Assembly: GCA_040954595.2 (NCBI GenBank) | Contig: CM082577.2 | Span: 15,197,903-15,261,902, forward strand | Direction: 5' to 3' | Length of the DNA stretch: 64,000 bases | Source of the DNA: Balanoglossus misakiensis | Lineage: Eukaryota; Animalia; Hemichordata | Shown here: positions 34,809 through 64,000 of the stretch, in pieces | How positions within the stretch are numbered: the stretch's first letter is position 1 | Layout of the letters: every line of letters starts with the position of its first letter | Program-made: the position numbers and the translations under genes | Notes under the pieces: model-generated | The model's input: the letters and a program-made list of their open reading frames with translations, nothing else | Database searches by the model: none | What the model was told of the DNA's origin: nothing

Positions 34809-34809
34809 T

Positions 34810-34950: not shown

Positions 34951-35330
34951 ATTATTTTATAGTTTTGTCAATGCCAGTGAATTTGCAGACTTCAAAAAGT
35001 ATAGGTGCGAACACTTCAGACTCGGACACGGAGATCGAGAACGGAGCAATGGCGTACGCGTAAACAAAAGGTCACCTGATCGTGGTGTGTCAGTGTACTG
35101 TACATTTCTAGTATCATATTCAAACATCAGGAAATAAATAATGAAGGTTTATTAACGCATGTGAAAATTCATTTAAGGGTTCTGCTGAAATATATCATGT
35201 CGCGAGTTCGACAGGTATGTTCACGGTGTACCTACTTAAACGAGTAGGTTTAATTAAAAGTCACCACAACGCTCAACTACTTTCTACGTAAACGATCGGC
35301 GTTCATACTGTTCGAGAAGCTATCAGCAAA

Positions 35331-35768
35331 ATGACAGAACGGGCCTCTGTTCGAAACGGACAAGTATTTTATGTGTGCACAACGCTAGACTGCGAAGCTG
35401 TCGGTTTCAAATCTCTCGATGGACTCTGTTGTAGGTGTTACGCACTGAAGGCCCCGAACCCAGATAATCCTTGTACAGACCGGACTTTGCAACAGCCACC
35501 GGGTAATGCCACCCACTGTTCTTACCCTGCTTGTTCCAACGTCGCCGTATCGGAAAATATCCTATTATGCCGTGTATGTCTAACCATCTTAGACGAAAAG
35601 GGAAAGACACCCGGCAAAGAAAGACGCATGTCAACAATCAAAGAATCCACCACAGAAGACAATCCCTCTGTACCCAAAACTCTGTGCAGGTTTCCGGCTT
35701 GTACCCACTTCGGCAACGAAGATTGCGTGGGATATTGTAACGAATGTTATAAAGTGTTGACGAAATAA
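35331..35768 (+). CDS. Small protein with three A20-type zinc fingers
   Basis: Three C-x4-C-x11-C-x2-C motifs, e.g. CRFPACTHFGNEDCVGYCNECYK; AATAAA at ~35829. Confidence 0.8.
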   Translation: MTERASVRNGQVFYVCTTLDCEAVGFKSLDGLCCRCYALKAPNPDNPCTDRTLQQPPGNATHCSYPACSNVAVSENILLCRVCLTILDEKGKTPGKERRMSTIKESTTEDNPSVPKTLCRFPACTHFGNEDCVGYCNECYKVLTK

Positions 35769-35913
35769 TAGGATTTGACGCTTCCATAGTTTCGTTGTGG
35801 ACACACTTGACAGCATTCAAAAACTGGCAATAAAATGACCAACATAACTAATATTTTTTTCGTCTATTGTCTTTTGTAGTAAGGTCGCAATGCTTTCCCA
35901 GCATGCACGTGTC

Positions 35914-36789
35914 TCATTTGATCCCCGTGCATGACTTGTTAAAGACATGTCTTCGACGACAGTATGTGGACTTCCCATATTTATGTGCTGTTATCTTCGG
36001 ATTTAGTTTGTGAAGATGGTATTTAAGTTCGCAGTAAAATAATGCAATTTCTGATTCCATAATTTTTAGAACAGTCTTCAGTAGTGGCCAACATCTCGTT
36101 AAAACAACCACTAATATTATTCCTTTATACAAGAGAAATTCGAACACGTATTGGAGGCCAGCCACGGCGCAAATATCGGTCATGACAGTAGGGTTGCAAT
36201 CTCCACGAAGTGACACCCAAAAAAGTAACTGAAGTGGGTAGTACATGACATATCTCGAAAGTGTAATACTTTTGTACCACTGCAAATCTGCACACAACCC
36301 ACCGGCCCCGACACCTCTCTGTATCCAATAAATGACATCTTGCCACCAATTGCGGATGTTCGCGCAACCACCACGTGTGTTGAGAGCTGCCATGGCATCG
36401 AATATGTCCATATGCCAAGCGATTTCCGAATGAATAGGTTTTCCAGAAAAACAATGTCCTTCAAAACACCTTTTGAATTTCTCAAAACCTACGGCTAAAG
36501 GATCTATGATTCCTCTCAAATCTTTCACAATAGCGCTCAAAACAACACCTAAACCACCAGTGATTTCCTTGAACAACTTCACGAGAAACAATCCTATGAT
36601 TGAAACGACAGCTGTTGCCAGCGCGATGTACAAATATGAATTCCAAGGTGCAAATCTGTAAAGAGTCCGACATACAGCTTTTGTGAGATGCCAAGCGGAA
36701 AGCTGGTGTTTCACAGTATCCTTATGTCTGTATATCTGAGCCTCGTACTGGTACACGACTTTATCGTCTGCCTTGTGCCCTAAAACCAT
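35914..36789 (-). CDS. Multi-pass membrane protein, unknown family
   Basis: Open frame from the ATG at 36789; several hydrophobic segments and a Cys-containing loop; head-to-head with the terminase gene. Confidence 0.7.
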   Translation of the reverse strand: MVLGHKADDKVVYQYEAQIYRHKDTVKHQLSAWHLTKAVCRTLYRFAPWNSYLYIALATAVVSIIGLFLVKLFKEITGGLGVVLSAIVKDLRGIIDPLAVGFEKFKRCFEGHCFSGKPIHSEIAWHMDIFDAMAALNTRGGCANIRNWWQDVIYWIQRGVGAGGLCADLQWYKSITLSRYVMYYPLQLLFWVSLRGDCNPTVMTDICAVAGLQYVFEFLLYKGIILVVVLTRCWPLLKTVLKIMESEIALFYCELKYHLHKLNPKITAHKYGKSTYCRRRHVFNKSCTGIK

Positions 36790-36861
36790 GGCGCCCAGTG
36801 GTATCTCAAGATATAATATATTTATCACGTTATTAATGTGTAAAAATATTCTCTACCGGTC
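36790..36861. promoter_or_regulatory. 72 bp AT-rich bidirectional promoter candidate
   Basis: GATATAATATATTTAT lies between two divergent ATGs. Confidence 0.5.
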
Positions 36862-37566
36862 ATGGAGGCAGACAAGCTCAGCCCATTTGTCAGAGATGCC
36901 CAGAGAATGGACGCTCTCATTACACAGTGTAGACAACAACAAGACCAACTTAGGGGTGTGTTTTTAAGAAAACACGCGTACAAGGAAAACTATATGTTTT
37001 CTCGCGTTGAAGACGTAGACGCGAGACTGTCTTTAATGAAAAGGGCTATACAAACCATCCGATTGTTATGCAAGGGGAAACAATTTACGTTCGAACCTTT
37101 CCAGGAGGAGATGTGTAGGGCCATAATGTTAAGTCGCTTACGACATTTTTTTGGTGAGGAATCTAAAAAGTTTTTCTTGCCTGTGATGAAATACCTAGGT
37201 ATAATTTCAGCACACTTTGACGAGCGAACATGCGACAGAATCAACCTATCGAGAGTACGTAGCCAAATAGAAGAATATAACCATAAGTTTATCGTTGTCA
37301 TGGTACCGAGACGCTCTGGTAAAAATGCCACCGCGCAAATTATTGCCACGACACTTTTATTGTACGAACCAAATTGTTCAATCATAGTTTGGGCTCAAGA
37401 CATGAACTGTGCGTTACTGAACAAAGAAGGTATATGTGAAAATCTATCGCTGCTCAAGACAATATCTGACATACCATTCGATTTTCGCGTTTCCGGGGAT
37501 ACGGTGACAGTCGTAAGATGTGATGGTAGTAAAGGCACTCTGCGCGTAAAGCCTAATTCGCCTAAT
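36862..37566 (+). CDS. DNA-packaging terminase ATPase subunit, exon 1 (herpesvirus UL15-like)
   Basis: FEPFQEEM (cf. UL15 LELFQKM), FIVVMVPRRSGKN Walker A at ~37303-37323 (cf. VFLVPRRHGKT), G-SKGTLRVKPNSPN, then GTAAGT donor at 37567. Confidence 0.85.
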
Positions 37567-38143
37567 GTAAGTGTAAACACATTCCATCTACTATTATGTA
37601 TTTGCATTGTATCCAGTTTACATTTTGTGTTCAATATTTATTTCATTATTGCGTACACTTGGATGGTCATCTCAATGTAGTTGTATTTGTAGAGGCCTAT
37701 GGCAACTGGCCATGGCGAAAAGATAAAGGTGCCACGCTCGACACTCTATCACTATTTGATTTACGTTTGTGTATGGGTTCGAATGGCACAAAAGTCACAG
37801 GACGCAAATGTTTAGATCACAGTGTATCATTTTATTGCGTGTCATACCGATATACAAAGTTAGTACGTACAATTAAACGCTTTCTTAAAGAGTCAGTCAG
37901 TGTACTAATCTCAAAATGTGGTCGCTATCCATTCACACATGGATCATGCTTCCTTTGTCCCAATGATCGTAAAATTCATCCCATCACACCTGTTTAGATG
38001 TGTACAAATCAGCCGTCGAGAGTTCACAAATACTATTCTACTTAATCGCCATATAATGGTCACGAGAGGGCGCCGTCGCTTGCTGTTTTGTTAGTACAGC
38101 ACAGGTCAATCAAGGTCATCTATTGTGTTCTGTCACAGTCCGT

Positions 38144-40216
38144 TCAATTGGCAAATGCGAGGCAATTCATTCTTCGCGCTTGGCTGGCACACGACACTGC
38201 GTCAGTGGGTAGTTTAAGATGATCATATATTTCATCAAATCGACGTTTAAACGACTCTTGCATCACCGCTACATTTCTTTGGTGCATTTCCATTTGCCTG
38301 GCCTGGGACGCGACCGTCTGCGTTAACTCATCTACTTTCGAATTGAGCTGTGCCTTATCAGACTCCAATTGGACTATGCGCATTTCTCGCTCTTTTAGCA
38401 TAGCCATTACATTCTCCGCGGCTGCTGATTGCTCCCTACAGTTTTCCAACTCGGAACGGAGCGACTCGATAGCAGCTGCTTGTTCCGCACTATGTTCTTG
38501 GTGACGTGAAATGGCATTGTACAGACAAGCGCCCTGTTTCGAGTTGAGAAACTGTACGATAGCTTGAAAGTTCTCATGACTATTCCTTGTACGGGGGCTG
38601 TCTTTCACAAATTCTTTCAATAGTTGACATTCTATAGTGGCGATCGTGATATCGCGTTCTGTTTTCTTGAGTAGGCGACTACCGACCTTTTTCGACATGC
38701 CTGATGTGATCTCGTCAACGCCGAATACAACAGTGGCGCCTGCCAACACCGAGGACATGGCAGTGACGTAGCAACCTAACACAGTATAGCCGAATTTATC
38801 ATACTGTGTGCACAAGTCGACGCGTGAAGAGTTGGAATATTGCGGTTTTGAGCGAATGATTCGGGCCACGGTGGAAACAATCGCACTATTCTGACATGGT
38901 TCGTTGTTTTGACCGGATAATCCTAACGGACACTTGAATTTAGTTCCAGATCTGCTTTCTATCAGTTTTATTGCGATTCGTTTTGTTGGGCCAGACGATT
39001 CGATTACTTCAATGGTTGGGTTGTCCGGGATAATTGCGTCGTTAGAAACGGTTACATTTATCACTTTGCAATCTTCTAAGGGTTTCATAATCTTAAACCA
39101 ATAAATTGTCGCTGGATACACTTGTTCACCAACGTGCATGTAGTACAAATTGTTCTTTAATTGTGGGGGCAATTTATCGCAATCTCCATACAGCACAGGC
39201 ATCCCAACCACAGCCGCGGCAGAATTTATGTCATCCTCTGTCGACAGTTGAATCAAAGGAGGGGTTTTCGAGTCCAAGAAATCGCATACATAATTCTTGT
39301 TCCGTTTACAGTCTTTCATTCGCTTGCGCTTGGCAGTTACCGAAGTATTGTCTCCCAACAGCGAAAACTGATCGTTTCCACATTGCACAGTAATAAGGTT
39401 CCAGGCCTCTTTCGGAGATAGCACGTGATAATGCCCGTCTTTCATTAAAGCGATGCACGGAAAATCATTGCTTTGACCTTTCTGTAACATGTATGATATA
39501 GGTGTTCTGATTGCGTCGTGAAACTCTTTCATACAGTCATTATCGCTTGTGTATAATGACAGAATAGCACCAAAATTGCCGCGAATGGTCAAATGGCGTT
39601 CCGCGTCGTTCGATTGGTCTGGTATTAAATCCTGAGTATAAGACATCGGACTTTGTGCGTCGAGCGGGGGGTGAATTTCAGCGGCAGATGCGCGAATTTC
39701 CTCTGGAACTTGATAACTGGTGCATGGATGAGAAACTGCAGTGGCATTCTCTGACGGCCCCGGGTTATATTGTTCAGTGTGGTTGTCGGATCCACCGTGC
39801 CGGTCCGCGTGATAGAACGGAGAAGAGTCTATCGAACTGGGTTCATTATGGACTAAGAATTCGGTCGTTGCCTCTGTGGCATTCACGCTCGGGGCCTGAC
39901 GGGTATGATCTGATACGCCTAGCAACAAATCTATGATGTTTGGAGACTCGTTCACCATTTCGGCCGAAAAATCTTGTTCAATATCGTCTCCAAATAAAAA
40001 GTCTTGGACGGTGGTATAAGGCTCATCGCTCGATATATCAGGAGCCATTTCTACATCACAAGCCTGTATGACAAAAAATGAGGAAATGTATTAACAGTTG
40101 TGCGAAGACACAGTGGGTTAACAAACAAAATGCGTTTAATGTGTATATGTACTCACGGGAATTTGAACCTGTCGGAGTACCGTCTGTAGAAAATCACTAT
40201 AATCGGTTTGAGCCAT
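38144..40216 (-). CDS. Hypothetical protein with C-terminal coiled coil, 2 exons (40216-40157, 40063-38144)
   Basis: 634 aa ORF extended in frame by a 93 nt GTGAGT...CAG intron; TATAAA at 40253-40258. Confidence 0.8.
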
Positions 40217-40625
40217 CTTCAATAATAAGCTGTACTCGTGGTTGACGTTCGCTTTATACATGTGCAACGTGTGTTCACATCAACATGCATGGGTTAAATT
40301 CATGTATGTTGTTGTGTATCCATCCCAGTTTACGTGTAGGCCGTCGCGATCACGTGACAAAATACGAGGTCATTATTACCACCACAAGCTACATATAAGC
40401 TGCCGTGACCACGTTATGTGTATGTATTTGTATGTATAAATTACTTCATGTACGTGATGTGTAACTATAAAGGTGATGTAGTTACATCGAGACACCATCT
40501 TAGTACACACACACTGCACAACTTGCATAAAATGTAGTTCATACACGTATACAAGCACGGTGTTTTGTATCAAAAATAGTTTAATAACAGCTATTCTACA
40601 ATGACTTTAACAACCACTGTAAGTA

Positions 40626-41514
40626 TCATTCTGTCAAGTTCATTTTTTCGTCTAGGCCAGGGACCATCTTACACATTTCGGATAATGCTAGAGCTAATAT
40701 TCTGTTTTCCAGTTCTATATTGGATATTTTATCTATGGGGTTGTTTTCAAAATCTGTAACGCTTTCGTCATCATGCAACAACAATTTGAACCACAAAATA
40801 ATCGCTACGTATGAGTCACCTTCGAAATTGATGACGGATATTGAGTCATTTGCATAATCAGATATATCACATAGTACCGGCATTCCAAACTTCGCATACA
40901 ACCACCTGTTGGATCCTTCAACAAAACGGTCTGTTTTAAGTCTGGGTGTCTGTTCTACAAAATTACCTAACGCACGTGGGTTTGTAGTTAACCCAAGTTC
41001 ACGAAGGATATCATGGCTATTTTGCAAAACCATGGATTCTACCGCGTCTAAATAATGCATGGCTTGTACACTGCCATCTTCCCTTAGGAAAAGGGTTGAA
41101 CACCTATCAACACCAGGAGTAGCTAAAGCTTCCAGCGAAACAGTACACGCACTGGGGACTGATTGCCAAACTCCTCCACGTTGTTTATAAAAAGCTATGT
41201 ATTCTTTGAAACACGACCCGTGTGCTTGTATCGTTTTTATTTTATTTAACAGTATCATTGGATGGTGATTTTGCGACCTCCGGTGTGTTGATTGGTGAAC
41301 ATCCTCAGAGACGACCTAAACAGTTGCATTGATAGAGAGGAAGATAGAAAGAGTGGTTTAGTGGAAAGTAATATTTAGTCAAATGTTGGCAACCCGATTT
41401 ACATGTAGAATGACATGTACGTACCTCAGTTGTATTTTCAGTAGATATATCCCGGGATGAATCGTCGGGTTCATGAATAGGCGTTTCCGTATGTTGTTCT
41501 TGGATCACACGAAC
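40626..41514 (-). CDS. Paralog of the adjacent gene; exons 41514-41425 and 41315-40626, first exon not found
   Basis: Shares GMPVL...Y.A.I.WFK with the 38144 gene; phase-0 GT-AG joins. Confidence 0.65.
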
Positions 41515-41596
41515 CTACAAAAAAACAAACAAAAGTGTAACATTTTTAACATTGCTTGGGACCACTCCGCTTAATGGTTAGCACACACACACACAA

Positions 41597-42157
41597 TCGC
41601 TGGCTCGCCGTTGACTGGACCAGCGCGCCCTCAACCGTTAACAAACAAACGAACACCGCTTCGCAATGTCCCAGCGTAAATCTCTCTTGACAGTAAAGTT
41701 TAATTGGCGGTCCACGGGATACTAATTAAACAGTTTTCAAAGCAATGAAGCCCTTACACGGAGGCGTGAAAAACTAATTGTCCGCCTCGAGCTAGCTAAG
41801 TATTCGGCTTCAACCGACTCGCCATTTTTAAGCGCAGCCAGATAGTAGCGCGTGTTAACCCCCCCCCCCCCCCCACCCCAACCAAATCAGCGACGAACCT
41901 TCAATGCCGGCTGACTGGTAGCAGAAAACACAAACGACCTTGAATCACACCACGACAGTAGTCGGGTCTGTGAGCACCCCCAAACGCAAATTTATCGGCG
42001 AAAAACTACGGGAGCTTTTTGAAACAGCGACACTGGCTCGCTGTTGACTGTACCAGCGCGCCCTCAACCGTTAACAAACAAACGAACACCGCTTCGCAAT
42101 GTCCCAGCGTAAATCTCTCTTGACAGTCAAGTTTAATTGGCGGTCCACGGGATACTA
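41597..42157. repeat. Two ~125 bp direct repeats (41597-41725, 42030-42157)
   Basis: ctggctcgc...accagcgcgccctcaaccgttaac...ccacgggatactaa is duplicated. Confidence 0.85.
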
Positions 42158-42174
42158 AAATGATCGACCCAGAA

Positions 42175-43620
42175 GTGGCCAGTAACGTTTGAATTCCTAA
42201 TTTGCATACAGTTCCCCAACTTTGTTTAGCAATTTGCAACCCATTTCTGACAATAATTCACCCCAGGCACATTACTGGTACTATGAGTTTACTACGTGTG
42301 ATTTTTCATGAAGTTTTAAGAAATTCTTTACCTTCACTGACAAAATGTCAACGTGACCTTGAAGTTACAACTTTTGTAAACAAATATCTGCCATACCCAC
42401 ACAAAAATTAACCCCTCATGTTTTAGAAACATTATTAAAACCCTCTATTCATCATTTTGACACGAATACAATCCCCCCCTCCCCTTCAACTTGAAAGAGT
42501 TATCGCTGCCCGAGTTGTAGGTAGATCAAAATGCAAGTCATCGAGAGCTATTTGAGCCATAGATAAACAATGCGTAAATTTCTGCTGTATTTAGATAATA
42601 ATCGCGGTCTCTACGTCAGTCGACAACTTTTGCCGGGCCGTTGATACTTGCCATAACGTAATTCGAATTGTATATTTGCCATAGCGCTACAAATCTCATT
42701 CACCTGACATGTCTTATTTCGGGCCACCAACACGTTTTTGACAAATAGTTTACGATACAAGTCGATTGAAATGTGGCAAATAAATGTTGAATTAAACGTA
42801 CGTACCAGTTCTGTATCTCCGCCGGACAGATATATGTTGAAATCATTGGATCGACAAATCGGTGTTTCCTCTTGCAGTTCACGGAGAAGGCGGTTCTAAT
42901 AACAACAAATACCATAAAAAAATATTTGATAACATTGGATGAAGTTGTTAAATTCTCACAAAATCTATTTTACCTCATTTACATTGACAAGAGTATTTGA
43001 TACATCTCTGCACACTCTGGTGAGAATAAAAAACTTACGTAATCATCTTGCCCTAGTAATGATTCGGATATATTTTCATCCAGCCCAATCAAATCCATGT
43101 TGTCTGATAACAGTTTATACCAAGAAAATGGTAGCAACATGAAGACAACCCTAATATTTATACAAGAACACTTCAGAAGTTAATTAAAATCACATGTAGG
43201 CACTTGACGACAATTATTCATGCCATCAGACAGAAAATGACATTAGTTGGTCTCTCGTGTATAATTGTTTGACTCGAATATTGAAACTTGACGACAGACA
43301 TTGGACATGGTGCAACGCAAACGCTTGAACTTGCCAGTAACGTTTGCATTCCTCATTTGCATACAGTTCTGGCAATTATTTCACCCCGGGCACATTACTG
43401 GCACTATGAGTGTACTACATGTGATTTTTCATTAAGTTTTATCAAGAAGAATTTCTTTACTTCCACTGACAAAATTGTGAACACGAAATTCAAAGTGACC
43501 TTGAAGGTAACAAAAACAAAAAACAAAGAAAAAAAAAATATCTGCCATACCCACACAAAAATTAACCCCCTCAGGTTTTAGAAACATTATTAAACTCATC
43601 TATTCAAAATTTTGACATGA
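42175..43620. repeat. Two diverged ~290 bp direct repeats (42175-42470, 43325-43620)
   Basis: gccagtaacgtttg...gcacattactgg...atctgccatacccacacaaaa...tagaaacattattaaa is duplicated. Confidence 0.8.
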
Positions 43621-45631: not shown

Positions 45632-45895
45632 TGGCTACTCGTACATTGACCTTTTGGGGCGGGATTCTTTTTTGGCGCGCAACCACTAGTACCAGGCCCC
45701 AGACCAGGAACTGGCGACCCGCCGTTTGTTTCCAACGCCAAATTTGATTCTAATGTTGAATGTCCGAGAAAACAATTTATCTGACCTGTAGTTTTCTTGG
45801 CTCGCTTACGTTTTAATTTGGAAACTTTTAAAAGAATCAAACGCCACCGTCTTGATGACTGGCCCCTATTTTAATAATGGTTTCGTCGTTTCGCA
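45632..45895. repeat. ~260 bp repeat, second copy at ~47899-48142
   Basis: tactcgtacattgaccttttggggcggg...tggtttcgtcgtttcgc is present twice. Confidence 0.88.
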
Positions 45896-46008
45896 ATGGA
45901 AAAGGTCGCTGAACTCGCCAGCTGAAGCGATTGCGAAACAGCGAAACCACAAAAAACTGACATTATTTCCTTAAATACCACAGAGCGAAGGATGCATATT
46001 GCAATTAA

Positions 46009-46353: not shown

Positions 46354-46373
46354 TTAAGATAATAAAGACTTTT

Positions 46374-51707: not shown

Positions 51708-51847
51708 CTTAAAACATCTGTGTATGTGTCCCGGGCGATAATTGGCTGGATAGAAACTATATTAGACTATTATCATTGACATACAATAGTATAGGCGTTT
51801 GAGTGTTTTTTTCTTTAATTTCATAACATTGTTCTTATGTATTCTGT

Positions 51848-53281: not shown

Positions 53282-54339
53282 TATGCGTGTGTGCTGACAG
53301 AGTGTCCGCTATATCATTAATGATTACTTTTTAAACTTGCGCTATGGGTAATTCTTTTTGTTTTCGTCAACTCATTTGTGGTGGCTTAACAAGTCGCCGT
53401 AGCTGTCACTTTGACTATGTATATTCACATATCCCTCTGGAGAGGGGGCGGCGGGAGAATTGAGGGGCGGGATTTTAAACGGTTGAGGGTATGTAAGGGG
53501 GGGGGGAGATTTTAAATAATATTTACTTGGAGTCCACGAAAATGCAGTTTCGCACTGTTCCCCAACACAGAATACTAAAAAAATAAAAACAATGTTCAGC
53601 TTTAAAACCTACTGATGAGGGGAAACATCAGTTTAAAATTCTTTTCATGGGAGTGCTGTTTTTCTTTTTGACAAGATAGATAGGTGACGTGAAATAAGGT
53701 TGGGGGGAGGGGATTTCAGAATGTTGGCAGTTCGGAAGGGGGTTTTCAACATATTTTTGGTTGTGAAAATTAGCAGTAACAAACATTGAATTATCCCACC
53801 CCCAAATATGTTTGTGAATGAAGCATTAAACAAGGGTTTCTGTAGCGGACGGTTCTGTGAAGGTCACGCAAGCCGGTTACATAACGGAAATCCCGTGTGA
53901 CCGCCACATAAACGGCACAGTCAGGGCTGACTTAAAACCCCGGTGCGGAAAGTGCCGGGGTTCGGATTAACGTGTGTTTGTATAGTTGTTTATTTGGGAG
54001 TGGTCGTCGTGCATAATGACTGTGTAATTGCTCTCATGTACACAGAAAATAATTGAACACTTCACACTTCTACGCGATTGACAACTGTTTGAATGGCGTG
54101 GTTATTGTTTCCCAGGGACGCTTCTGAAAAGCACTGAAACCAGATTTCTCCCAAAATCATCGTTGTTTCATAAGCTCGTGTTCTTTTTCGTCGATAACTG
54201 TATGTTGTGCGTGTTTATAAAGCCAACTACTGTCGTTGTGTGGTGTAATTCTTTATGCTTGGACCTGTTTGGGCCGATTCTCATAGAGCCGAGATCGTTG
54301 GCCCGCACCGGGGTTTAAACACAACTTTCATATCATGAC

Positions 54340-55578
54340 TCATTCGGGCCATGTTAACAAGTCGTCGCAGCTGTCACTTTGAGCAGAGGAGAGTCCTCTG
54401 GTAACAATATCTTCATCAGAAAATCCGCTGGAGCTCGAATCATCTCCTTGATCGACGTCGTCAGAAAATGTGTAAAAGATCTCCTTGGGTAGAACCAAAG
54501 AATAAAGAATATCATTGTGTGTATTGCCGTACGCAATTATCTTATATTCAAGATTGACAATAAACTGCCTGGGACTCGACAAGTTGTGATCGTAATATTT
54601 GTTGAGCGAGAGTGATAATTTTTTGCCTCTGATATCATTAACGCCACTATCAAGGCATAGACGTTCCATCCAGGCAACAAATAAAGTGATCGCTTTGAAC
54701 GGTATAACCAAAGCAACACATTCTCCCTTGGCATCATGCCGCGTGGGGAAATCTCGGAATCCTGTCCGACTATTCTCTTCTAAGAGTTTCCCATCGAAAG
54801 CTTTGTCTAAGGATCTTTTGACATTACTATTCAAAACAGCGTGAATAAGCATAGTCTGCAGATCATCAAATTGGTATCTGTCATGAGTGTTAATCAAGAC
54901 TTTTAGCTGGCCATCTTCACTGCAAATTTTGTGACGGGAGAAATCACTTGTGTCCACCGAGAATCCTTTCTGATTCAACAAGAAATGCAGTGGTGACCCA
55001 ACGAAATTAAATGTGTTTGTCTCCTTGATTTTGCCCTCTTCTTGGCCATAAAACAACCCTCGTGTGAGAATGTTTGATATGATGCCGTGACTGGATATAT
55101 GCATTACGTCATTCGACGTAACCAATATACCTCGTCCGGCGGCAGTCTTATTTCTGATCATGTATTCTGGAAATAACGTTGTCTTGTTACCAGTTGCTGC
55201 CGGAATTACGAGTGCCTTATTACAACCGCTAGAATCCGCCAAGCAAACTGACCAAGTGTACATGTAATTGTCATAGTCTCGGTTGACAGATTCCTGGAGT
55301 CGCACATCGGCCTTTTCTAGTACCCACCATTTTGGCAAGGGGCCATCTGTAAAATCCTCTCCTACATCGTCACCAGAAATTATTACATCTCTAGAAGATA
55401 TTGACGTATTACTGACCGTGTGCTCACTCCATTTCTCCTTATCAATACCACCGACGCGGTACGAGTAGCTCCTTTCACTGTCACTTGTTTCAAATGCTGT
55501 GAAAGGAGTGTTCGCCGTTACCACTAGGGAACGCGAGATTGACCTATGTACCCACCTATTCGCTTTGACGTAGGCCAT
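54340..55578 (-). CDS. Hypothetical 412 aa protein with acidic C-terminal tail
   Basis: Long clean ORF, ATCATGG start context, GATATATTTAA box ~30 bp upstream; family not recognised. Confidence 0.78.
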   Translation of the reverse strand: MAYVKANRWVHRSISRSLVVTANTPFTAFETSDSERSYSYRVGGIDKEKWSEHTVSNTSISSRDVIISGDDVGEDFTDGPLPKWWVLEKADVRLQESVNRDYDNYMYTWSVCLADSSGCNKALVIPAATGNKTTLFPEYMIRNKTAAGRGILVTSNDVMHISSHGIISNILTRGLFYGQEEGKIKETNTFNFVGSPLHFLLNQKGFSVDTSDFSRHKICSEDGQLKVLINTHDRYQFDDLQTMLIHAVLNSNVKRSLDKAFDGKLLEENSRTGFRDFPTRHDAKGECVALVIPFKAITLFVAWMERLCLDSGVNDIRGKKLSLSLNKYYDHNLSSPRQFIVNLEYKIIAYGNTHNDILYSLVLPKEIFYTFSDDVDQGDDSSSSGFSDEDIVTRGLSSAQSDSCDDLLTWPE

Positions 55579-55716
55579 GATTTATACGGAGCAACCCCAT
55601 CAACTTAAATATATCCGTTTCATATCAATGAATGACACTCGATCGTCATGTTTGCACATTTAATCCAAACTGTACGTTTTGGATAACAAAAACTCACATG
55701 AATTTGTCATACAGTC

Positions 55717-56759
55717 CAGGGATCGTGTTAACGCAGAATTCCGCGTCCGGGACGCAAGCTTTTTTGCTGTGATGTCTGCGTCCGGGGAACCCCAGCTGAG
55801 CGCACACTGCAGTAATTAATGATCGTCTTGTAATTTTAAATTGTTTATTCAAAAACGCTTTTACGGCTTGCTAATCCAGAAGAATGACACTTGTAAACAA
55901 AAACAAAGTGTGAAATAATCATTTGACTAAAGCATGTTAGAGTTTTCCTGACAACAAAAGAAAAACTGGCTTCGTTTTTTCTTTGGCAGGTCCGCCAATT
56001 GCCTTGTCAACAAGTTGTGAACGATGTGTCATTAATTAGGGGCCGATGTCGAGAGCGGGTGGTCGCGCGCGATCGCGGGACGTACCCATGCAGCCGGCCG
56101 ACTGCATCGAGCGGTGGACCCGATGTACCGCGCACGGTCAATCGAACGCGCGTGACCTTGTTTTCGACAGTTCAGCGGGTGTCTTTGTTGACTCTCTGTG
56201 TTTGATTTCCGCAAAAAAAGAAAATTTCTCGCTTTTGATTATGCTTTTTACAGCCTGTCTATCTTCATTGGTGTACATGTAATCCTTTCACCCGTTTTCG
56301 CTTGAAAATCTTTGATTTATCCGACTCCATGTAGCTGGACTGGGTTAAATATGGGGGCAAAACTCGTCACTCTGACAATGATAGCTATGCATCGCTTCCT
56401 CACTGTGGTTCCCCGTATAAACACAGGGGGCTCTCCCTCCGCGATTTTATTGTTTGTTTGTTATTGTTGTTGTTATTGATTGGCAAAATCTTTTTCTCAA
56501 GCTATGTCAAACTTCAATGAACAGAAAGCCAGAAGGAAATTACTTTATAATAAAAAATGAAACGTTCATAGAAAATGAAAATAAATGTGGAAATACGCTT
56601 AAATTGTGATGTTGACTTCGCCAGTAAGTGTGTGGCGAGTACGTATGTGTTATAATATATTGAAAAAATGGGGACCCACAAAAATATTTAGGGACCCCTG
56701 ATTTTCACAAGGAAGGGGTCCCAGGGACCCCAAGATTTTGAGGCCTAGCGCAATCCCTG
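55717..56759. mobile_element. Probable hAT-like non-autonomous element
   Basis: CAGGGAT...ATCCCTG termini and gggaccc subterminal repeats; TSD not clean. Confidence 0.5.
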
Positions 56760-57122
56760 AATACACGTATATCCCCGCACCAGAATAAAGGCTGTTCCCA
56801 TTATTGACCACCCTCCCCTTATATGACATGCAACTATTGGCAAGGCGGGGGCATGACGGTGATCTTCTATGAATTGTCTATCTCCCCCCCCCCTCCCCTC
56901 AACCTCCTTGCCGGGTGAGATAATCGTGCTCACACGTCAGTTTAGTAACAGCGCGTTTAACAGAGATTTCTCATATGTATTCAGTTCTATTGTCAACTAT
57001 AACTGATTCGATCTCCGTCACATGTTTGTAGTCTCAATTTTCAAACTATTGGAAGGGCTCTTTGCTAACAAGCGTGTATTGGAAATATGTCAAATACAAT
57101 ACTAATATACTGTAATATAAGA

Positions 57123-57596
57123 CTAGATGCATAGACGGACACTCCAGTGAAGATTATCATCACATATTATGTACAGGTACATATGTAACCCCTTGGTGAG
57201 TTCCACGTTAAAATCTGCATGACAGAAAGATGAGTTTTGTTTACTGCACATTGTCGACGAAATTGCATCGGGAGGAGAGATTAATTCTATCACGCATCGT
57301 TCAGCGACAATATCTGGTCTAAACGTGACCTTTATAGCCCACAGGTAGACATTGCAGATTGCTTGTACACCCACAGATTCAACGAAAGGGCCAAGTTTGT
57401 CCGGAATGAACATCCACTCTGGTTTCACCGTATCTGTGGTCGCTCCTTGTCTCACGGGAGTCAATACAGGGACAGACAAGACGCACGTGACAAAAAGGCA
57501 CCCCACAAAATACACCAAACAAGCAACTTTAGTCCCGTCCGACTTCACTGGTTCATCGTCCAGTAAACGGGTGATGAAATCTTCATCTTCCTCCAT
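57123..57596 (-). CDS. Small type II-like membrane protein
   Basis: Acidic N-terminus, one hydrophobic segment, Cys-containing C-terminal part; divergent from the 57655 gene with a 58 bp gap. Confidence 0.65.
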   Translation of the reverse strand: MEEDEDFITRLLDDEPVKSDGTKVACLVYFVGCLFVTCVLSVPVLTPVRQGATTDTVKPEWMFIPDKLGPFVESVGVQAICNVYLWAIKVTFRPDIVAERCVIELISPPDAISSTMCSKQNSSFCHADFNVELTKGLHMYLYIICDDNLHWSVRLCI

Positions 57597-57654
57597 TTCA
57601 CGCAGTTACAGGGAGGAGATATGTTAATGTATTTTAATACATAGTGACAACGTC

Positions 57655-58140
57655 ATGGAGAGATTTCTTGTAATATTTACAACGTGTTTCATGGTCGCCT
57701 TGTCTGCAGAATTGCCAACCGTGTTAGTAGGTGATTTGTACGTCGGCTTATCACCTATATTTTATCCGAGTGCGTGTATTAATGAGAGTGGTGCAAGTTG
57801 TTTGCGTGAAATAAATGGATTGGTGTATGTAGACTGCGACAGACGGCTATGCGAACGCCCCTTTTCGCTCTCTCGTTGCACTGGGCAACAACCAGGCTAT
57901 AATAAGGGTGACCACGGAGAAGTTTGGGTGGAACCGGATAAGGGGTGTCGCTTTCTCGGAGGTTACTGCGCTTACACGGGTCGCAACAATCTTGTCGGCA
58001 TTTGTGTTCCGGCGTGGAAAAGGGACGTCGACCAACGTTTATTTCCTAAGTTGGTACCTCGTAATAGTATATGTCTAAGCAAATGTGACACGGATGTAGA
58101 ACTATGGGGTGGTGACGCATCATTCTGTACTTGTGGTTAA
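57655..58140 (+). CDS. Secreted Cys-rich protein
   Basis: Signal peptide MERFLVIFTTCFMVALSA and about 12 Cys in the mature part. Confidence 0.72.
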   Translation: MERFLVIFTTCFMVALSAELPTVLVGDLYVGLSPIFYPSACINESGASCLREINGLVYVDCDRRLCERPFSLSRCTGQQPGYNKGDHGEVWVEPDKGCRFLGGYCAYTGRNNLVGICVPAWKRDVDQRLFPKLVPRNSICLSKCDTDVELWGGDASFCTCG

Positions 58141-58256
58141 TGTCATCCTTCCAATTGTCGCCCACACGTAACGTCCTCTAACCCAATCTATTATTGACGA
58201 TTTATCGGTATTATTAACATGCTCAGAGGTTGAACAGAACGAAACGACTAGTTGAT

Positions 58257-59489
58257 ATGACAGTTATGTTTATCGTAACTGTCTTTTTACTGCATTGTTT
58301 ATGTTTATCCCAAACATTTTCATATATCTGTACAGAAGATCACAGCCATTGTGCAGGTCCTATCACCGAGTTAATGCGCGCATTCGATGTTGAATACTCA
58401 CTAACGGCATACCATCTAATTCCGGCAGACAATGAGGAAGTGTCTTGTAAACACTTTTCTACAGCGTTAGAATGTACTTGCACAAGCAGCGATGTCGTTA
58501 TTCATTATCCTGCGGATCACCTGATAACACTCCAGCGGAAAAACGACGACGTAATCACGGTTCTACCAGGATGTAATTCGACGTTTCGGATAGTCATAAC
58601 TGATCCCATGCTATCCGCAGATAGCGCCACCATGGGGCAAGAACCATACTGGTTGCGTGGGCCAGCCTGCGGATTGTTTGTAATACAGCGAGGCAACATA
58701 GTTTTGAAAGACATCACCGTTGACAACTCGGTTTGCATGCAAACCCTTGAAATTGAATACGGGTGTTGGCACAGGGTCGAGTCTGCGGCCATATTTGTTA
58801 CGGGGTTACATATAGTTTCTGATATTAAACTCAGTAATCTGAAAGTGGTGACGTCCGATAGAGATGGGAAGGAATGGAACGTCCCTCCTTTGCTCGCATA
58901 TTTTGCGAGTTCGTCCGCGTTTGAGGTTCTTCGTTTGCAAAATATTACCATTGACGAGATAGCGAACGTGTCAGTCAAATTTGAACAGTGCGTTGGCCAA
59001 GCACATGTAGGCACTAAGCACGGCGCCGAAGCTACTGTTGTCGTAGAATATTTTCCCCTTCTTGACACAAAACCATTGATTGTAGATACTCCTGTTACTA
59101 GAATTTTTGATATGTCCCAATGGCTAGGACCCACTCTCTTGTACAAAATATACGCAGACTATCGGCGCCAAGATCGAAACGAATGGACACTTTACTTGTT
59201 TGGTGCATTAATAGTGATTGCTATTACGTTCGTTGTTATTCAGATTACTATATGGTTTTGCAGGGTCGACTCTGGCAGTCACCCAGGAGATATTTACGAC
59301 GCATTAGGAGCAGTTGCTATGGACAAATTAAAACAACGCAAGAAGCGTAGACACCAACACGAGACCAAAAACTCTCATTACAACAAATATTCTGACTTTC
59401 GCAAATTGTATCATTCGTCTGACGAGGATGACGCAAATCGAGTTGTGTTTGACCAGTCACAGAGATTTTTACACAATGATAGACTATAG
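58257..59489 (+). CDS. Type I membrane glycoprotein
   Basis: Signal peptide from the ATG at 58257, Cys-containing ectodomain, TM LYLFGALIVIAITFVVIQITIWF, charged tail; AATAAA at ~59578. Confidence 0.8.
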   Translation: MTVMFIVTVFLLHCLCLSQTFSYICTEDHSHCAGPITELMRAFDVEYSLTAYHLIPADNEEVSCKHFSTALECTCTSSDVVIHYPADHLITLQRKNDDVITVLPGCNSTFRIVITDPMLSADSATMGQEPYWLRGPACGLFVIQRGNIVLKDITVDNSVCMQTLEIEYGCWHRVESAAIFVTGLHIVSDIKLSNLKVVTSDRDGKEWNVPPLLAYFASSSAFEVLRLQNITIDEIANVSVKFEQCVGQAHVGTKHGAEATVVVEYFPLLDTKPLIVDTPVTRIFDMSQWLGPTLLYKIYADYRRQDRNEWTLYLFGALIVIAITFVVIQITIWFCRVDSGSHPGDIYDALGAVAMDKLKQRKKRRHQHETKNSHYNKYSDFRKLYHSSDEDDANRVVFDQSQRFLHNDRL

Positions 59490-59691
59490 ACAAACGCAAA
59501 ATACATACAATTAAATTACAGCTAGACCGGTTTTGGTAATATTTGACACACTTTTATTTCCACCTTTGATACAACACAATAAACCTGACGTAGGTAATAT
59601 TTCCACTCAATTTGTCTGCTTGTTTCTTCGCATATACACACGGCGATCCCTGTTGAATATTTGGTCCCAAGGGTTGTTGTTGTTGTATCAA

Positions 59692-60831
59692 CTACTCCGA
59701 GTCCGAAATACACTCCCATGAATTTGTAGGCGAATCGTCCGTTGCGTCGTTAGTGGGCTTGAGTTGGTAATCATTCAACTATATACATAAGGAATAAAAT
59801 TAACATGGTCAAAATGGGTGATGTAGTGTATTGACACACTCACAAAAATGTATTTTGGCAATTACTATACCTGGCGCATACAGTCTTGTAATTTATCCTT
59901 GCATTGGTCAAGTTCTGTGAAGGTAGCATGTTTTTCACGCTCAGCCCTCAACAATTGTCTCCTGAGTAAATCTAATTCGTTTTGCATGGACTCGCACAGT
60001 GGCTGTAAATCATCCTTTACCGATTGTCGTGGTTCCTCTACCTATATAGAAAATGTATATGAATGGTGAGACGACTACGGGAAATTATATGCAAGAGAAA
60101 TACTACACTGATAAGTAACAATGACAGTCTGTATTCACCCGTTGTTGTTTTTGTAGTATGTTGTTATCTTCCAGAATCTGTTGTCTTTCACGTTTAAGAT
60201 CATCGATCTGAGCCTCTAGAGATTTTATCAGAGTTTTGGTGGCGCGAGAGTATGTAGTCAGTTCAGTTGTGGTACAGTCGTTTTTCATAGTCAGAGAGTG
60301 TATCTGGTCCGCTGCAAACTCTTTGTACTTTATCAACTGTTTGTTTTCTTCGTCCATTTCCTTAGCATTAGCCTCGTACTTTGCGGCCTGTTTATGCAAT
60401 TGTTCTATTTGTTTGACAGTAGACGATTTAAATTTGAGAAGATCGCGAATTTGTTTCTCTAAAACCTGATTGCGTTTTCCCAGAGTGGCGACTGCTTCAT
60501 CGACATCATTTCTTTCTTGTTGGTCAAAGTTCTGCCCATGCTGGTGTTGGTCAATGATTTTATCCTGTAGCGTCTCAATGAGTTTTCTCAAAGATTGAAC
60601 TCGTTCTCTTTCAGCCAGTAGTTCATTTAGCTGTGGTTGTTCGTCAGTCTTCTGCGACTGCAGGTGTTTAATTGTCATCTGCATATGTTCTACATCTCGT
60701 AGCCTGTCTTTGTCGTGAGTCGCTCTAATTTTCATCGCGATGCCTAAGTCGGTCGTCACTTCTTTCAATTTAGTGATCAAACCGTTTATATTATCTACGT
60801 TATGTGCTGGAGACTGTCGTGCGTTCGCCAT
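59692..60831 (-). CDS. Coiled-coil protein, 3 exons (60831-60139, 60041-59871, 59778-59692), ~316 aa
   Basis: Heptad-rich; two phase-0 GT-AG introns keep the frame; minus-strand AATAAA at ~59553; GATATATAAG box upstream. Confidence 0.75.
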
Positions 60832-60916
60832 GGCTGGTTATCTGCGAGGTGACTACACCATCACGCTTATATATCATCGAAATGGCATTTGTTTAACACA
60901 AGCACGTTAACTGTTC

Positions 60917-61029
60917 TAGACTCTCTCACAGCCGTTTGGCAAGAGAGAAACACCTTCTGGTGTTGTGGACACACATGCAATCAGACTATGAGCCTGCATG
61001 GACGGCGAGAGGGGCTGTGAGAGAGTCTA
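60917..61029. mobile_element. Tiny TIR element with TAG...CTA termini (Academ-like)
   Basis: TAGACTCTCTCACAGCC...GGCTGTGAGAGAGTCTA. Confidence 0.6.
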
Positions 61030-61154
61030 TATACATGTAATCAGAGATCTGCCCACGGTGGTCGGCGCCGGTCGCGCGCGACCGGCACTCTCAGGCCGAG
61101 ACCAGAACAAAAAGGTCGCGACCATTGCTATTGTTCGCTGTGATACACGCACTT

Positions 61155-61345
61155 TGGCGTGAGAAATTTTCTTTTTCGGCGGAAATCAAACACATGGGAC
61201 CAGAGAGTCCACAAAGACAGCCGCTAAACTGTCGATAACAAGGTCGCACGCGTTCGACTGACCGTGCGCGGTACATCGGGTCTACAGCTGGATGCAGCCG
61301 GCTGGGTCCCGCGATCGCGCGCGACCATCCACTCTTGAGATCGAC
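61155..61345. repeat. Inverted, diverged copy of 56047-56232
   Basis: Reverse complement matches ggtcgcgcgcgatcgcgggac...gatgtaccgcgcacggtca...tttgatttccgc...agaaaatttctc. Confidence 0.85.
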
Positions 61346-61694
61346 TCCAAAGTCGTTGTCACGGTCGGGATTGCTAATGGCCTCGATCGGTATAAAATTG
61401 TAGTCAATGAAACCCCAAAAATCGTCATCATTGTTGATGTGGCTGTCATGAAAATGTCCAGCGAAAAATTTGCTGTCTTCCGGGTTTACAAAGCAAAGGA
61501 AAGACGCATACTGTCAAAGGTCACGTAATTAGGTCATGTCGACAACGCTTACATCGAGCTCATGAATAGTAATAATCTCATTAATATGCATGAGCCCGAC
61601 AACCACTTCGTTTTGGCTCGGCAAAACCCTGTCATGTTCATGTGATACCAAATGTCGTAATATTAACGTACAGTTTGACTAAAAGGGATAAACC

Positions 61695-62328
61695 ATGTCG
61701 GATTTTATGCATCTATATTTCACCACGTGTTGTATGTTGGCCTTAGCGTCAAATTTCGCGTATAGCCACACCTTGCATAGCATTAACAGCTCATCGGATA
61801 GCATCCGAAGCCCCGAAACATTACCCATACAAACAGAGGAAGCCATTGACGACGTTGTGTCGCCACCAAACAGAGATGAGAATAGAATCAATTCGTCTCA
61901 TGCTAAGAGCGCTATTGAAAACAAAACAATATTCACAATGCATGACTACAGACAACTGAAAACTCGTCTGACCAATGTCACACACGTACAAGCGTAGTCG
62001 ATGTGACTAGTAGACACGTACATGTATGTACAACCTATTACGTAGTAGGGAAGCGGATAAGACATGCCAGAAGGTTCATGCGCAAGTGGGATTGTATTCC
62101 ACGCGCCTTTCGCAGACTAGATACATGACATCACGGACAAGATACTTCCCAAATTCGATACATTACGTCATGTACAGGAGGCCATCCGGACCAGCCGCCT
62201 TTTGCAAATTCAAAACATGGTGTCATAGGTAACAAATAAAACGATGCACAGAAATACAAAGTATGCATCAAATCATGACGCAAGAGTTTGATTCTTTCGC
62301 AATAGTGATGAATTGTAGTCATGGCTAA
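61695..62328 (+). pseudogene. Disrupted secreted-protein gene, possibly cystine-knot-like
   Basis: Signal-peptide ORF 61695-61997, then a shifted frame CQKV...RYFPNSIHYV...C...C..*...CTE...NCS. Confidence 0.35.
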
Positions 62329-62539
62329 CAGAAGCGCGTTAGTTATTTTACCGACGTCAACGAACGTGACATAAGCACAAAGTAACAAGAATGCCCTGAC
62401 CACTCACGATTGTTATTTAAATTAGCGCCATATATGAGGTCACCAGTATAAAACCGAGTAGAATGGCTAAGATAAAGAGAACTGACTGATGCTCTGACAC
62501 ATGTATGTGTGTTGAACGCCTGCGTGTACGGTGAGAATA

Positions 62540-64000
62540 ATGAGTTCTGGTGCCTCTGGTTCCGATTTTGCCTACCTATATCGTCGTGTGATTCAACTTT
62601 CTGAACCATCCAACGAAACAATCCCGAATGATGTGGACGATAGTTTTCATGCCAAAGGCACGTACGGCCTCTGCCAATTTCGACCAAGAAGCGGGACCAT
62701 CGTCAAACAGAGTCGTGGATTCAAGAGAGACCGGACGAAGTTACATATCAAGAATAATTTTATTACTAATCTGGAGACATCTCTCGCCAAAGAGGCTCTC
62801 ATTATGCGATACCTGAACAAAAAAGATGCGACGTCGTACAGATATCTTCCGAAACTGCTATCTTTTCAGATCGTGGCTTACAGACACTCGTCTGGAAACA
62901 TAATTCGGATGGTTCCGGAACTGCAAATGGAATTTGCCGGAGTAGACCTGCACAGGTTTTGCATCGTAGATGGCAATCTTGTCAACGTTCAACACTTACT
63001 GAAACAAGCATTAGAAGCGCTGCAGTTTCTCAGTGCGCATGGGGTACTTCATTGCGATATCACGTTGTCGAACATTACTTTCCATCGGGAACTGTCTCGG
63101 TTTAAGTTGATCGACTTCGGGTATGCTGAATTTATTCATGCAGATGTTGTCGATAAAATGGCGTTCACGTCACCGCATTCTGAGATTCCACTTGGTGCGT
63201 CTCGCATGAAGGCGCTACAGACAGGAAATAGTCCATATTCTAAATCGCATTTACCTCGCGGTATCTTGTTGCATTCTCTGGACCCGTGTCCTGAAGAAAA
63301 TACAATCAGTGCATGCACTCAGACGACACCGTTGCCGTACTATGACCCAAGTATTGCTCTGTCAGATGAAATAGAAACAGAATCATATAGCCATGAGAGT
63401 GATTGTTTTTCGTTGGCATGTGCAGCGGTGATGGTAATGGGTCTTCCCATGTACAGAGATAGAGACCTCGCGACAGTCACTTATCATATTCTACAATCTG
63501 TGACATGCCCGGTCCAAGCTCAACGTTGTATCGACCACTTAACGCGTGTCTGTCGCTCAATTAACTTACTTAGAGGGCCACTCGACGACATCGAAATTGC
63601 GTTCTGGAAGTCAATGATAAACAAAGATATACGACTGATACATGAACTGGGATTCAACTATCTGGGACCAAGGCTTCTCGATCGAGTTAATTGGATATAC
63701 GGCGACTATGTAGTTAAAGCCCTGAAATCGATGTTGCACCCTATCAGAAGTTTTAGATCACCTGCGGCTGATACTCTGCTTCTTTTGGATCAAGTGCCAC
63801 ATGTAACTGCTGATTATGACACGGATGTAGATGGCCTATCTCACGCTCGTCAACTCACAGACAGGTATATAGTCCACACAGCCAAGTACACTATCAGTCC
63901 GTCACACGACATCCCAGTTGCATCAATCACTCTGGCAACGCGTGTAGATGGACACCGATTTGTGCCAATATTCACTGATGATCGTCTCGTCGTTAAGTGG
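62540..64000 (+). CDS. Divergent Ser/Thr protein kinase, 3' end beyond the window
   Basis: Manual translation gives 487 open codons: AKGTYG, IVK, KEALIM, MEFAG, LHCDITLSNI, LIDFG, YYDPSI, SDCFSLA, MLHP...R; TATAAAA at 62447. Confidence 0.9.
   Translation, partial: MSSGASGSDFAYLYRRVIQLSEPSNETIPNDVDDSFHAKGTYGLCQFRPRSGTIVKQSRGFKRDRTKLHIKNNFITNLETSLAKEALIMRYLNKKDATSYRYLPKLLSFQIVAYRHSSGNIIRMVPELQMEFAGVDLHRFCIVDGNLVNVQHLLKQALEALQFLSAHGVLHCDITLSNITFHRELSRFKLIDFGYAEFIHADVVDKMAFTSPHSEIPLGASRMKALQTGNSPYSKSHLPRGILLHSLDPCPEENTISACTQTTPLPYYDPSIALSDEIETESYSHESDCFSLACAAVMVMGLPMYRDRDLATVTYHILQSVTCPVQAQRCIDHLTRVCRSINLLRGPLDDIEIAFWKSMINKDIRLIHELGFNYLGPRLLDRVNWIYGDYVVKALKSMLHPIRSFRSPAADTLLLLDQVPHVTADYDTDVDGLSHARQLTDRYIVHTAKYTISPSHDIPVASITLATRVDGHRFVPIFTDDRLVVKW

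Follow-up and report, generated by a model that had tools for sequence, protein, structure and literature searches.

Nearly all invertebrate herpesviruses known so far are malacoherpesviruses. Integrated herpes-like genomes have already been reported from invertebrates (lancelet, starfish and ribbon worm), and the novelty of the locus described here lies in its lineage, not in the phenomenon. We analyzed a stretch of 64,000 nt from Balanoglossus misakiensis (GCA_040954595.2, CM082577.2, positions 15,197,903-15,261,902 of the forward strand), referred to as the window; all coordinates are those of the window. We found that its right part (35150-64000) carries intact genes, among them the first exon of a herpesvirus-type terminase. 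The reading that we favor, and hold to be fairly probable, is that this part is a segment of a large DNA virus from a deep, unnamed Herpesvirales lineage, resident in the chromosome at low copy number and with host repeats between its genes.

An earlier first-pass annotation of this DNA had named Teratorn and the amphioxus elements as precedents. The element is of this known kind, and closer precedents than those two exist. As is likely for the viral region of the window, Teratorn has intact chromosome-resident genes with low expression (PMC5601938). It differs in its piggyBac gene and terminal inverted repeats, none of which were found in the window, and in its 30-40 copies, against an apparently low copy number here. 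BelcheriHV-1 of the lancelet is likewise integrated and flanked by repeats, with a gene-poor, repeat-rich middle and very low polymorphism, as described in the available passages of PMC12373286. There it is credited with 27 open reading frames (ORFs) that have malacoherpesvirus homologs, whereas no window ORF besides the terminase matched a herpesvirus Pfam family above noise. The lancelet and Capitella elements match malacoherpesvirus proteins at E 1e-95 or better, against 11-13% identity in structural alignment for the window terminase. Deep-branching herpes-like regions reported in invertebrate assemblies are similar in being embedded in host sequence. They were placed by DNA polymerase alone, and the passages that describe them contain no terminase, intron or transcript analysis, while the window has no recognized polymerase to compare. 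The window element may belong to, or be, one of these regions.

The terminase exon and its relatives

The comparison with herpesviruses is carried by one exon.

36862-37566, plus strand: exon 1 of the terminase large subunit, with N-terminal helices, an FEPFQ motif and the Walker A sequence VPRRSGKN, ending at a phase-0 GT donor

Taken alone, this exon had a weak PHROG terminase match (E 0.0012) and look-alikes in the Atlas at 0.96-0.97, with terminase clusters among them. As a single query it had no match in PDB sequences or phage records, and prokaryote genomes gave none. It also had none among longer proteins, a weak test in which one search was confined to 798-2275 amino acids (aa). Scans of IMG/VR for the terminase returned either nothing or one phage terminase that matched at Walker A alone, which we rejected. 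An exhaustive protein search recovered 23 proteins at E ≤0.001. We kept 22 as the homolog set and dropped one (P0023; 696 aa, eight short matches). Identity to the window terminase was 67% and 58% for the closest two, about 31% for four more and 16-23% for the others. None of the 20 that were looked up is informatively named; the records come from ENA, Logan, NCBI and JGI. Sixteen of the more distant proteins (within P0009-P0025) form two further groups with the same donor position, one of them (P0025) on a 335-kb contig, and these groups may be further unnamed herpes-like or mirusvirus lineages. Behind the homologs P0003-P0008, one cluster member sits on 144 kb. No paper on this terminase family or its intron was found in a literature search that left most subscription journals outside. 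The Walker A strings of the family were absent from paper text and from the searched supplement files of three papers.

The fold predicted from the single sequence was unusable (pLDDT 40), and an AlphaFold (AF2) model from the 23-sequence alignment reached a pLDDT of 87. Its best match among solved structures was pUL15 of herpes simplex virus 1 (HSV-1; 6m5r_A, Z 14.7, root-mean-square deviation 4.8, 188 aligned residues), with model residues 29-235 lying on chain residues 53-342. The next four solved structures were phage terminases (Z 8.0-8.9). Foldseek against the PDB agreed weakly (E 0.002, TM-score 0.56). In a structure search of BFVD, ranks 1-13 were all Herpesvirales terminases (13-18% identity, best E 2e-8), and herpesvirus names are carried by 14 of the 16 matches at E ≤0.001. 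The top three were alloherpesviruses; orthoherpesviruses and one malacoherpesvirus were interleaved, with ORF109 of ostreid herpesvirus 1 (OsHV-1) at rank 18. The TM-score normalized to the query was 0.54-0.68 for the top 13 rows, compared with at most 0.44 for phage rows. The modeled window terminase is thus closer to herpesvirus pUL15 than to phage TerL, and its N-terminal ATPase part places the element in Duplodnaviria. Together with the motif and the phase-0 donor, the structural ranking bore out the first-pass call of a terminase exon.

We then scanned IMG/VR with the orthoherpesvirus Walker A and obtained 56 loci, 53 of them on contigs of 124-241 kb. These loci are unnamed; their motif, their size and their resemblance to pUL15 were the grounds for treating them as orthoherpesvirus-type. 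Upstream of Walker A, 55 of the 56 loci and all 23 family members have an LE[LP]FQ-type motif. A tree was built from 42 rows, comprising the window, the 22 homologs, four cluster members, 14 of 51 orthoherpesvirus-type rows and one phage. Nine rows grouped with the window, with support of 89/85 in the drawn tree and 99/98 in a group test. The 14 orthoherpesvirus-type rows formed a clade of their own (99/98), with the window outside. The 22 unnamed proteins outline a lineage that is close to none of the herpesvirus terminases compared.

The conserved frame of the window exon ends, 88 residues from the Walker A start, in N followed by GTAAGT (phase 0). Each of the 22 homologs has x-V-S at 86-113 residues, which corresponds to reading through a GT donor. 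Among scorable orthoherpesvirus-type loci, a GT was found in 50 of 51 and a GC in the other, at 83-87 residues from Walker A. Five loci were unscored (an earlier stop in three, truncation at the contig end in one, and one spurious match). In three orthoherpesvirus-type loci (L098, L118 and L120) the frame breaks about 45 residues after Walker A, which suggests an extra terminase intron in one sub-lineage. The window terminase is therefore split before Walker B at the position and in the phase seen in orthoherpesviruses. This feature is not exclusive, because such a split is also reported for mirusviruses. The intron position puts the gene among eukaryotic Duplodnaviria and matches orthoherpesviruses, and it is compatible with mirusviruses as well. 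Passages of PMC13595911 give about 3.5 kb for the terminase intron of Herpesviridae. The same source and PMC12768974, each in part, describe distant or trans-spliced terminase exons in allo- and mirusviruses. Outside two orders, most mirusvirus terminases are put together by trans-splicing near Walker B from parts that lie about 30 kb from each other (available text of PMC12768974), and the terminase of SalHV-1 has three exons (available text of PMC13030845), a point on which the passages of PMC11565193 are silent.

The window terminase shares with Orthoherpesviridae UL15/TRM3 the fold (residues 29-235), the LE[LP]FQ-type motif, the distance to the phase-0 intron and the presence of opposite-strand genes in that intron. 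It differs in identity (15-18%) and in Walker A (VPRRSGKN versus VPRRHGKT). Its second exon is not within 26 kb, compared with the intron of about 3.5 kb in the available part of PMC13595911, and its context is of invertebrate type. In clade, motif and exon spacing it falls outside Orthoherpesviridae. Alloherpesviridae terminases are the best three structural matches, yet at 16-18% identity; like theirs, the window terminase appears to be a multi-exon gene with distant exons. Sequence searches with the window terminase gave no named match. For malacoherpesviruses, identity in the structural alignment was 11% for OsHV-1 ORF109 and 13% for soft-shell clam herpesvirus 5, values that, on this model, argue against membership. 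The element is not an orthoherpesvirus and probably lies outside the other two families. Membership in Herpesvirales is likely, as judged from the one exon.

Gene content and the central spliced locus

Ten ATG-initiated ORFs of at least 200 aa lie in 35150-64000, compared with a mean of 0.02 (maximum 1) in 100 Markov resamples; none was found in 1-24000. None of the viral ORFs is broken. Coding density was 0.75 in 35150-41320, 0.03 in 41321-50700 and 0.60 in 50701-64000, giving two gene blocks around a 9.4-kb sparse middle (41.3-50.7 kb) that is made up of introns, repeats resembling miniature inverted-repeat transposable elements (MITEs) and tandem arrays. The genes had been annotated as intact, tightly packed and mostly intronless. 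Their intactness stands, whereas packing and intronlessness do not hold in the sparse middle and the spliced locus within it. Besides the terminase exon, the two blocks contain the following genes.

35331-35768, plus strand: A20-like zinc-finger protein, 145 aa (Pfam zf-A20 E 2.9e-4, 21.1 bits, just below the cut-off of 21.6)
35914-36789, minus strand: 291-aa protein of no family, two hydrophobic segments, divergent from the terminase exon over 72 nt
50709-51707, plus strand: F-box and leucine-rich repeat (LRR) protein, 332 aa (Pfam F-box-like E 7e-9, LRR E 6e-9)
52280-53281, minus strand: predicted type I membrane glycoprotein, 333 aa, 26 Cys, 8 sequons
54340-55578, minus strand: 412-aa protein of no family
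57123-57596, minus strand: 157-aa protein with one hydrophobic segment
57655-58140, plus strand: Cys-rich protein, 161 aa, likely secreted
58257-59489, plus strand: predicted type I membrane glycoprotein, 410 aa
60103-60831, minus strand: coiled-coil protein, 242 aa
61695-61997, plus strand: 100-aa frame with a weak signal-like N-terminus
62540-64000, plus strand: divergent Ser/Thr-type protein kinase, open at the window end (Pfam E 3e-11)

The kinase, F-box/LRR and A20 proteins of the first-pass annotation were recovered, the last just short of its cut-off. Its short divergent promoters correspond to two gene pairs with gaps of 72 nt and 58 nt. Its several membrane glycoproteins also found support: the frames at 35914, 52280 and 58257 combine transmembrane-like segments, Cys and N-glycosylation sequons, and the frame at 57123 is hydrophobic as well. 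As predictions, these glycoproteins are no more than compatible with an envelope. The kinase retains a Gly-loop variant, the lysine, HCD and DFG, and its homologs are two unnamed proteins with 40% and 32% identity. A search of IMG/VR with its profile yielded no relative; in metagenomes the profile gave 79 generic kinase matches and a single true relative, on an 8.4-kb contig (L001). No core viral gene accompanies the homolog on that contig. There, in 6868-8292, the next frame after the homolog overlaps it and encodes 256 aa of no family; then comes a matrixin-like metalloprotease in convergent orientation. The 5 kb upstream are gene-poor with repeats and resemble the middle block of the window.

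Two apparent viral matches were rejected as noise, Herpes_UL6 on the 410-aa glycoprotein (Pfam E 0.035, 13 bits where 27 is the cut-off) and Pox_VLTF3 on a 634-aa frame (Pfam E 0.14), the latter frame having no match in the Atlas or IMG/VR. No helicase-primase, triplex or nuclear egress complex was recognized among the window frames. Short intergenic frames matched no family above cut-off (92 of 109 searched), and Rfam had no match in the window. A GC-rich 195-bp inverted repeat pair (56036-56230 and 61161-61351, 80% identical, moderately high depth) brackets the glycoprotein block. An A-rich low-complexity tract with a 105-bp period lies at 49598-50190, upstream of the F-box gene.

Contigs of a public run (X3), which we take to be RNA, revealed a spliced locus in the middle of the viral region.

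38144-40063, minus strand: terminal exon, about 640 codons, preceded by an AG acceptor, with an acidic N-terminus and a C-terminal coiled coil; an X3 contig spans it completely
40626-41315, minus strand: terminal exon, 229 codons, preceded by an AG acceptor and represented in an X3 contig
41425-41514, minus strand: predicted 90-nt internal exon, phase 0 to 0, weakly like the exon at 42704-42895 (E 0.003)
42704-42895, minus strand: internal exon, phase 0 to 0, acceptor supported by X3, donor predicted
46356-46892, minus strand: leader-exon unit in three tandem copies with the same GT donor (46381, 46571 and 46714), the third joined to 42895 in X3
48164-48902, no strand: nine 82-bp repeats in an array, 99% identical, with about 41 nt in common with the leader-exon unit of the opposite strand

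Two X3 contigs, over 37902-40062 and 40594-41313, carry about 30 unplaced letters apiece at the upstream end (minus strand), and both of these ends fall exactly at AG acceptors. A further contig joins 46714 to 42895, which defines a 3.8-kb GT..AG intron. The predicted exons 42895-42704 and 41514-41425 hold phase 0 into either terminal exon. A common leader thus probably joins one of two alternative last exons (229 or about 640 codons), with one junction seen directly in one contig and the rest predicted. This leader may resemble the latency leaders of gammaherpesviruses. The lack of X3 cover on the other genes is no evidence that these are silent. The exon of about 640 codons had no family or Atlas match. 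The central exons have observed/expected CpG ratios (CpG o/e) of 0.9-1.5, undepleted like the viral ORFs. Within the terminase intron, the locus occupies the opposite strand to that of the terminase exon, an arrangement also described for UL16 and UL17 inside the UL15 intron (available part of PMC3079670); no homology of the central locus to UL16 or UL17 was found.

Depth suggests that the 82-bp array is not a high-copy host repeat, and its role as an origin or regulatory repeat is a conjecture. An inverted duplication (45931-46489 and 48809-49399) flanks the array, and its plus-strand arm has a copy of the leader donor near 48945, from which a rightward spliced transcript toward the F-box gene is possible.

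Probable chromosomal residence and alternative readings

We compared the window with contigs of X3 and two further public runs (X1 and X2), in which contig depth is not equivalent to copy number. The following elements bear on the comparison.

23972-29937, plus strand: intact two-ORF long interspersed nuclear element (LINE) behind a (TTC)n tract; ORF1 24224-25789 with a zinc knuckle, ORF2 25792-29718 with endonuclease, reverse transcriptase (RT) and zf-RVT
29938-34809, plus strand: second, broken Tx1-type copy, 95-98% identical to the first, with deletions and an abrupt end at 34809
34811-35130, no strand: high-copy repeat opening with a 140-bp palindrome, between the LINE and the first viral gene; bin depth 9,644 (X1) and 49,492 (X2)
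46005-46354, no strand: very high-copy palindromic MITE-like element with TTAA at both ends
49003-49358, no strand: second copy of the TTAA-flanked MITE-like element

Viral genes between 35.2 and 64 kb had an X1 depth of about 120-190, which stays flat across the 29 kb and is about half the value of the neighboring LINE pieces (232-292). Repeat bins at 34.5-35.1, 41.8-49.4, 51.4-52.1, 53.4-54.7 and 60.7-62.0 kb ranged from thousands to 345,757. X2 showed the same pattern, with viral genes at about 300-500. Beside the repeat at 34811-35130, viral genes had depths of about 146 (X1) and 480 (X2). Such contrasts of two to three orders are expected of high-copy host repeats inside a low-copy element. 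Integration is therefore likely, with the high-copy repeats between viral genes as indirect support. These depths would suit either a hemizygous insertion at half depth or a homozygous insertion next to a LINE present in two copies. The long X1 pieces differ from the window by nine substitutions in 17,244 nt. No telomeric repeats were found in the window, and neither its main ORFs nor the 92 short frames held a piggyBac or other transposase, nor were terminal repeats found; the true ends of the element lie outside the window. Of the first-pass proposal of an integrated, possibly undescribed member of Herpesvirales, the herpes-type terminase (fold, motif and intron) stands, integration has indirect support from the internal repeats, and the 35 kb edge is probably not the integration end.

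Several results weigh against the favored reading. The window contains one viral core gene, and of that gene the first exon alone. No capsid, portal, maturation protease or polymerase was recognized with Pfam, PHROGs or NCBIfam. A motif search of all frames of the window detected no Walker B exon, which puts exon 2 more than 26 kb away or elsewhere. The link to pUL15 is weak at the sequence level, since the sequence profile reached it in the PDB at E 0.17 only, and none of the 23 family members matches Pfam. The tree warns of long branches and contains no allo-, malaco- or mirusvirus rows. The three runs represent one sample, as contigs, and the assembly may have been built from them. X3 carries the label 'DNA?' and none of the runs is recorded as RNA; that X3 is RNA is our reading. 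Finally, X1 and X2 contigs run left past 35193 at full viral depth, adding about 335 nt absent from the window, so the virus reaches further left in that sample. This extension includes 55 nt resembling 35444-35498 and possibly carries a second A20-like gene. The edge at 35 kb is probably not a viral or integration end; it is likely a rearrangement or assembly breakpoint. A deletion, a different allele or a mis-join would account for it. Mobilization by the Tx1 LINE was rejected, because the LINE is cut at its 3' end and another repeat separates it from the virus. A host gene cluster was rejected as well, since no cellular terminase of the same fold was among the top structure rows, as was a bacterial prophage, given the spliceosomal donor and the herpes-type N-terminus.

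The first-pass caveat that a mirusvirus-like relative could be involved still stands, because no capsid, portal or polymerase was recognized and mirusviruses also split the terminase near Walker B. We consider it unlikely that the integrated element is a member of Mirusviricota or of a third branch of eukaryotic Duplodnaviria, placed between mirus- and herpesviruses, that moved into animals. Mirusviricota share the eukaryotic Duplodnaviria terminase, often split near Walker B, and chromosomal integrants are known; trans-splicing, as described in part of PMC12768974, would fit the absence of exon 2 from the window. No mirusvirus was among the 50 BFVD rows listed, possibly because the library holds none, and the more distant terminase homologs include JGI and ENA records with no host recorded. 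By eye, two Aurantiochytrium mirusvirus terminases (available part of PMC12606086) have a similar helical stretch before Walker A. These two are, however, unsplit at the site and read SPSQ where the family and orthoherpesviruses read LE[LP]FQ. The N-terminal helices of the window terminase superpose on pUL15, and its context is animal-like with many membrane glycoproteins, while the known mirusvirus hosts are unicellular in a survey that left out Metazoa (passages of PMC10827195).

Two other readings concern the state of the element, and we regard both as quite improbable. A free or episomal persistent virus, co-assembled with the host through shared repeats, would account for the different left junction in public contigs, a junction that consists of a truncated LINE and a high-copy palindrome, typical mis-join sites. 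The intact ORFs without CpG depletion would also fit. Against it, high-copy repeats occur at many internal sites, including the introns of the spliced locus, with viral-depth contigs reaching or entering them, and viral depth is of the same order as that of the low-copy LINE in X1 and X2. An incomplete relic, a partial viral fragment with a central locus domesticated by the host or with a host gene among viral pieces, would agree with X3 contigs that cover mainly the two central terminal exons, with the long repeat-filled introns there, with the lack of recognized core structural genes in 29 kb and with a left side that looks deleted. Yet all other ORFs are intact too, at near-zero divergence, the CpG of the central exons is undepleted (0.9-1.5) as in viral ORFs, and these exons lie opposite the terminase strand inside its intron, as UL16/UL17 do in the available part of PMC3079670.

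Under the reading of a low-copy chromosomal herpesvirus, the packaging motor would come from joining terminase exon 1 to a Walker B and nuclease exon outside the window, probably by long-distance or trans splicing. Judging from family function, the kinase, F-box/LRR and A20-like proteins may act on host signaling and ubiquitination, and the membrane proteins may be envelope or cell-surface proteins. The central minus-strand locus would be a latency-type transcript of a mostly quiet provirus, with repeated leader exons and probably alternative last exons. A broader proposal, which we hold as doubtful though conceivable, is a fourth family-level branch of Herpesvirales (or a bridge to mirusviruses), widespread in sequence databases though unnamed there, and chromosome-resident in latent form in invertebrates. 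It would share its terminase intron with human herpesviruses, and its latency would be driven from a repeat-derived, alternatively spliced leader, much like gammaherpesvirus latency transcripts. If this were true, the terminase intron and spliced latency control would be older than the divergence of invertebrate from vertebrate herpesviruses. With 22 unnamed relatives and a terminase at about the same distance from those of all three families, the lineage would supply new taxa for rooting Herpesvirales and testing the mirusvirus link, for which the shared intron position is a rare sequence-independent character. If low-copy, intact and transcribed, as it appears to be, the provirus would also let latency be studied in a natural setting, in an animal that lacks adaptive immunity. 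These prospects are tempered by the integrants already reported, one of whose lineages the window may represent.

The left flank

The sequence up to 35 kb had been annotated as a decayed transposable-element landscape. This was not borne out, as 24.0-29.7 kb is an intact Tx1-type LINE and 29.9-34.8 kb a broken copy 95-98% identical to it. The supposed switch in landscape near 35 kb is visible in CpG o/e, which is 0.58 in a BEL/Pao long terminal repeat (LTR) element, 0.78 in the Tx1-type LINEs and 1.07 in viral ORFs. It is not accompanied by a GC step, and X1/X2 contigs do not reproduce the 35.2 kb junction. In X2, a loose end at 35085 carries a doubled GATC site, and many contigs have short unmatched ends, which suggests that X2 is a Hi-C library.

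The LINE at 23972-29937 is presumably of Tx1 type, judging from the order of its domains. Both copies lie head to tail, each starting at a (TTC)n tract (23972-24016 and about 29940), and the first may belong to a young target-specific family. TTC-targeting Koshi elements are described from pufferfish (available text of PMC3812793). The broken copy carries a 512-bp TTAA-flanked insert at 31742-32253. This insert and the elements at 46005-46354 and 49003-49358 are non-autonomous, have terminal inverted repeats starting AGG and TTAA ends, and are among the deepest bins. They are probably Kolobok-like. The latter two are more alike in direct than in inverted orientation.

Further left, 1-24 kb contains pieces of LINE reverse transcriptases and of an LTR element of BEL/Pao type (rve, DUF5641). 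The transposable elements of the window mark the host as an animal. At 7585-8873, a decayed RT is followed by a frame resembling the start of a GIY-YIG endonuclease, which suggests a Penelope-type element. Two copies of the BEL/Pao 5' part (12081-12821 and 20653-21367) are 90% identical and carry a frame of 134-152 aa.

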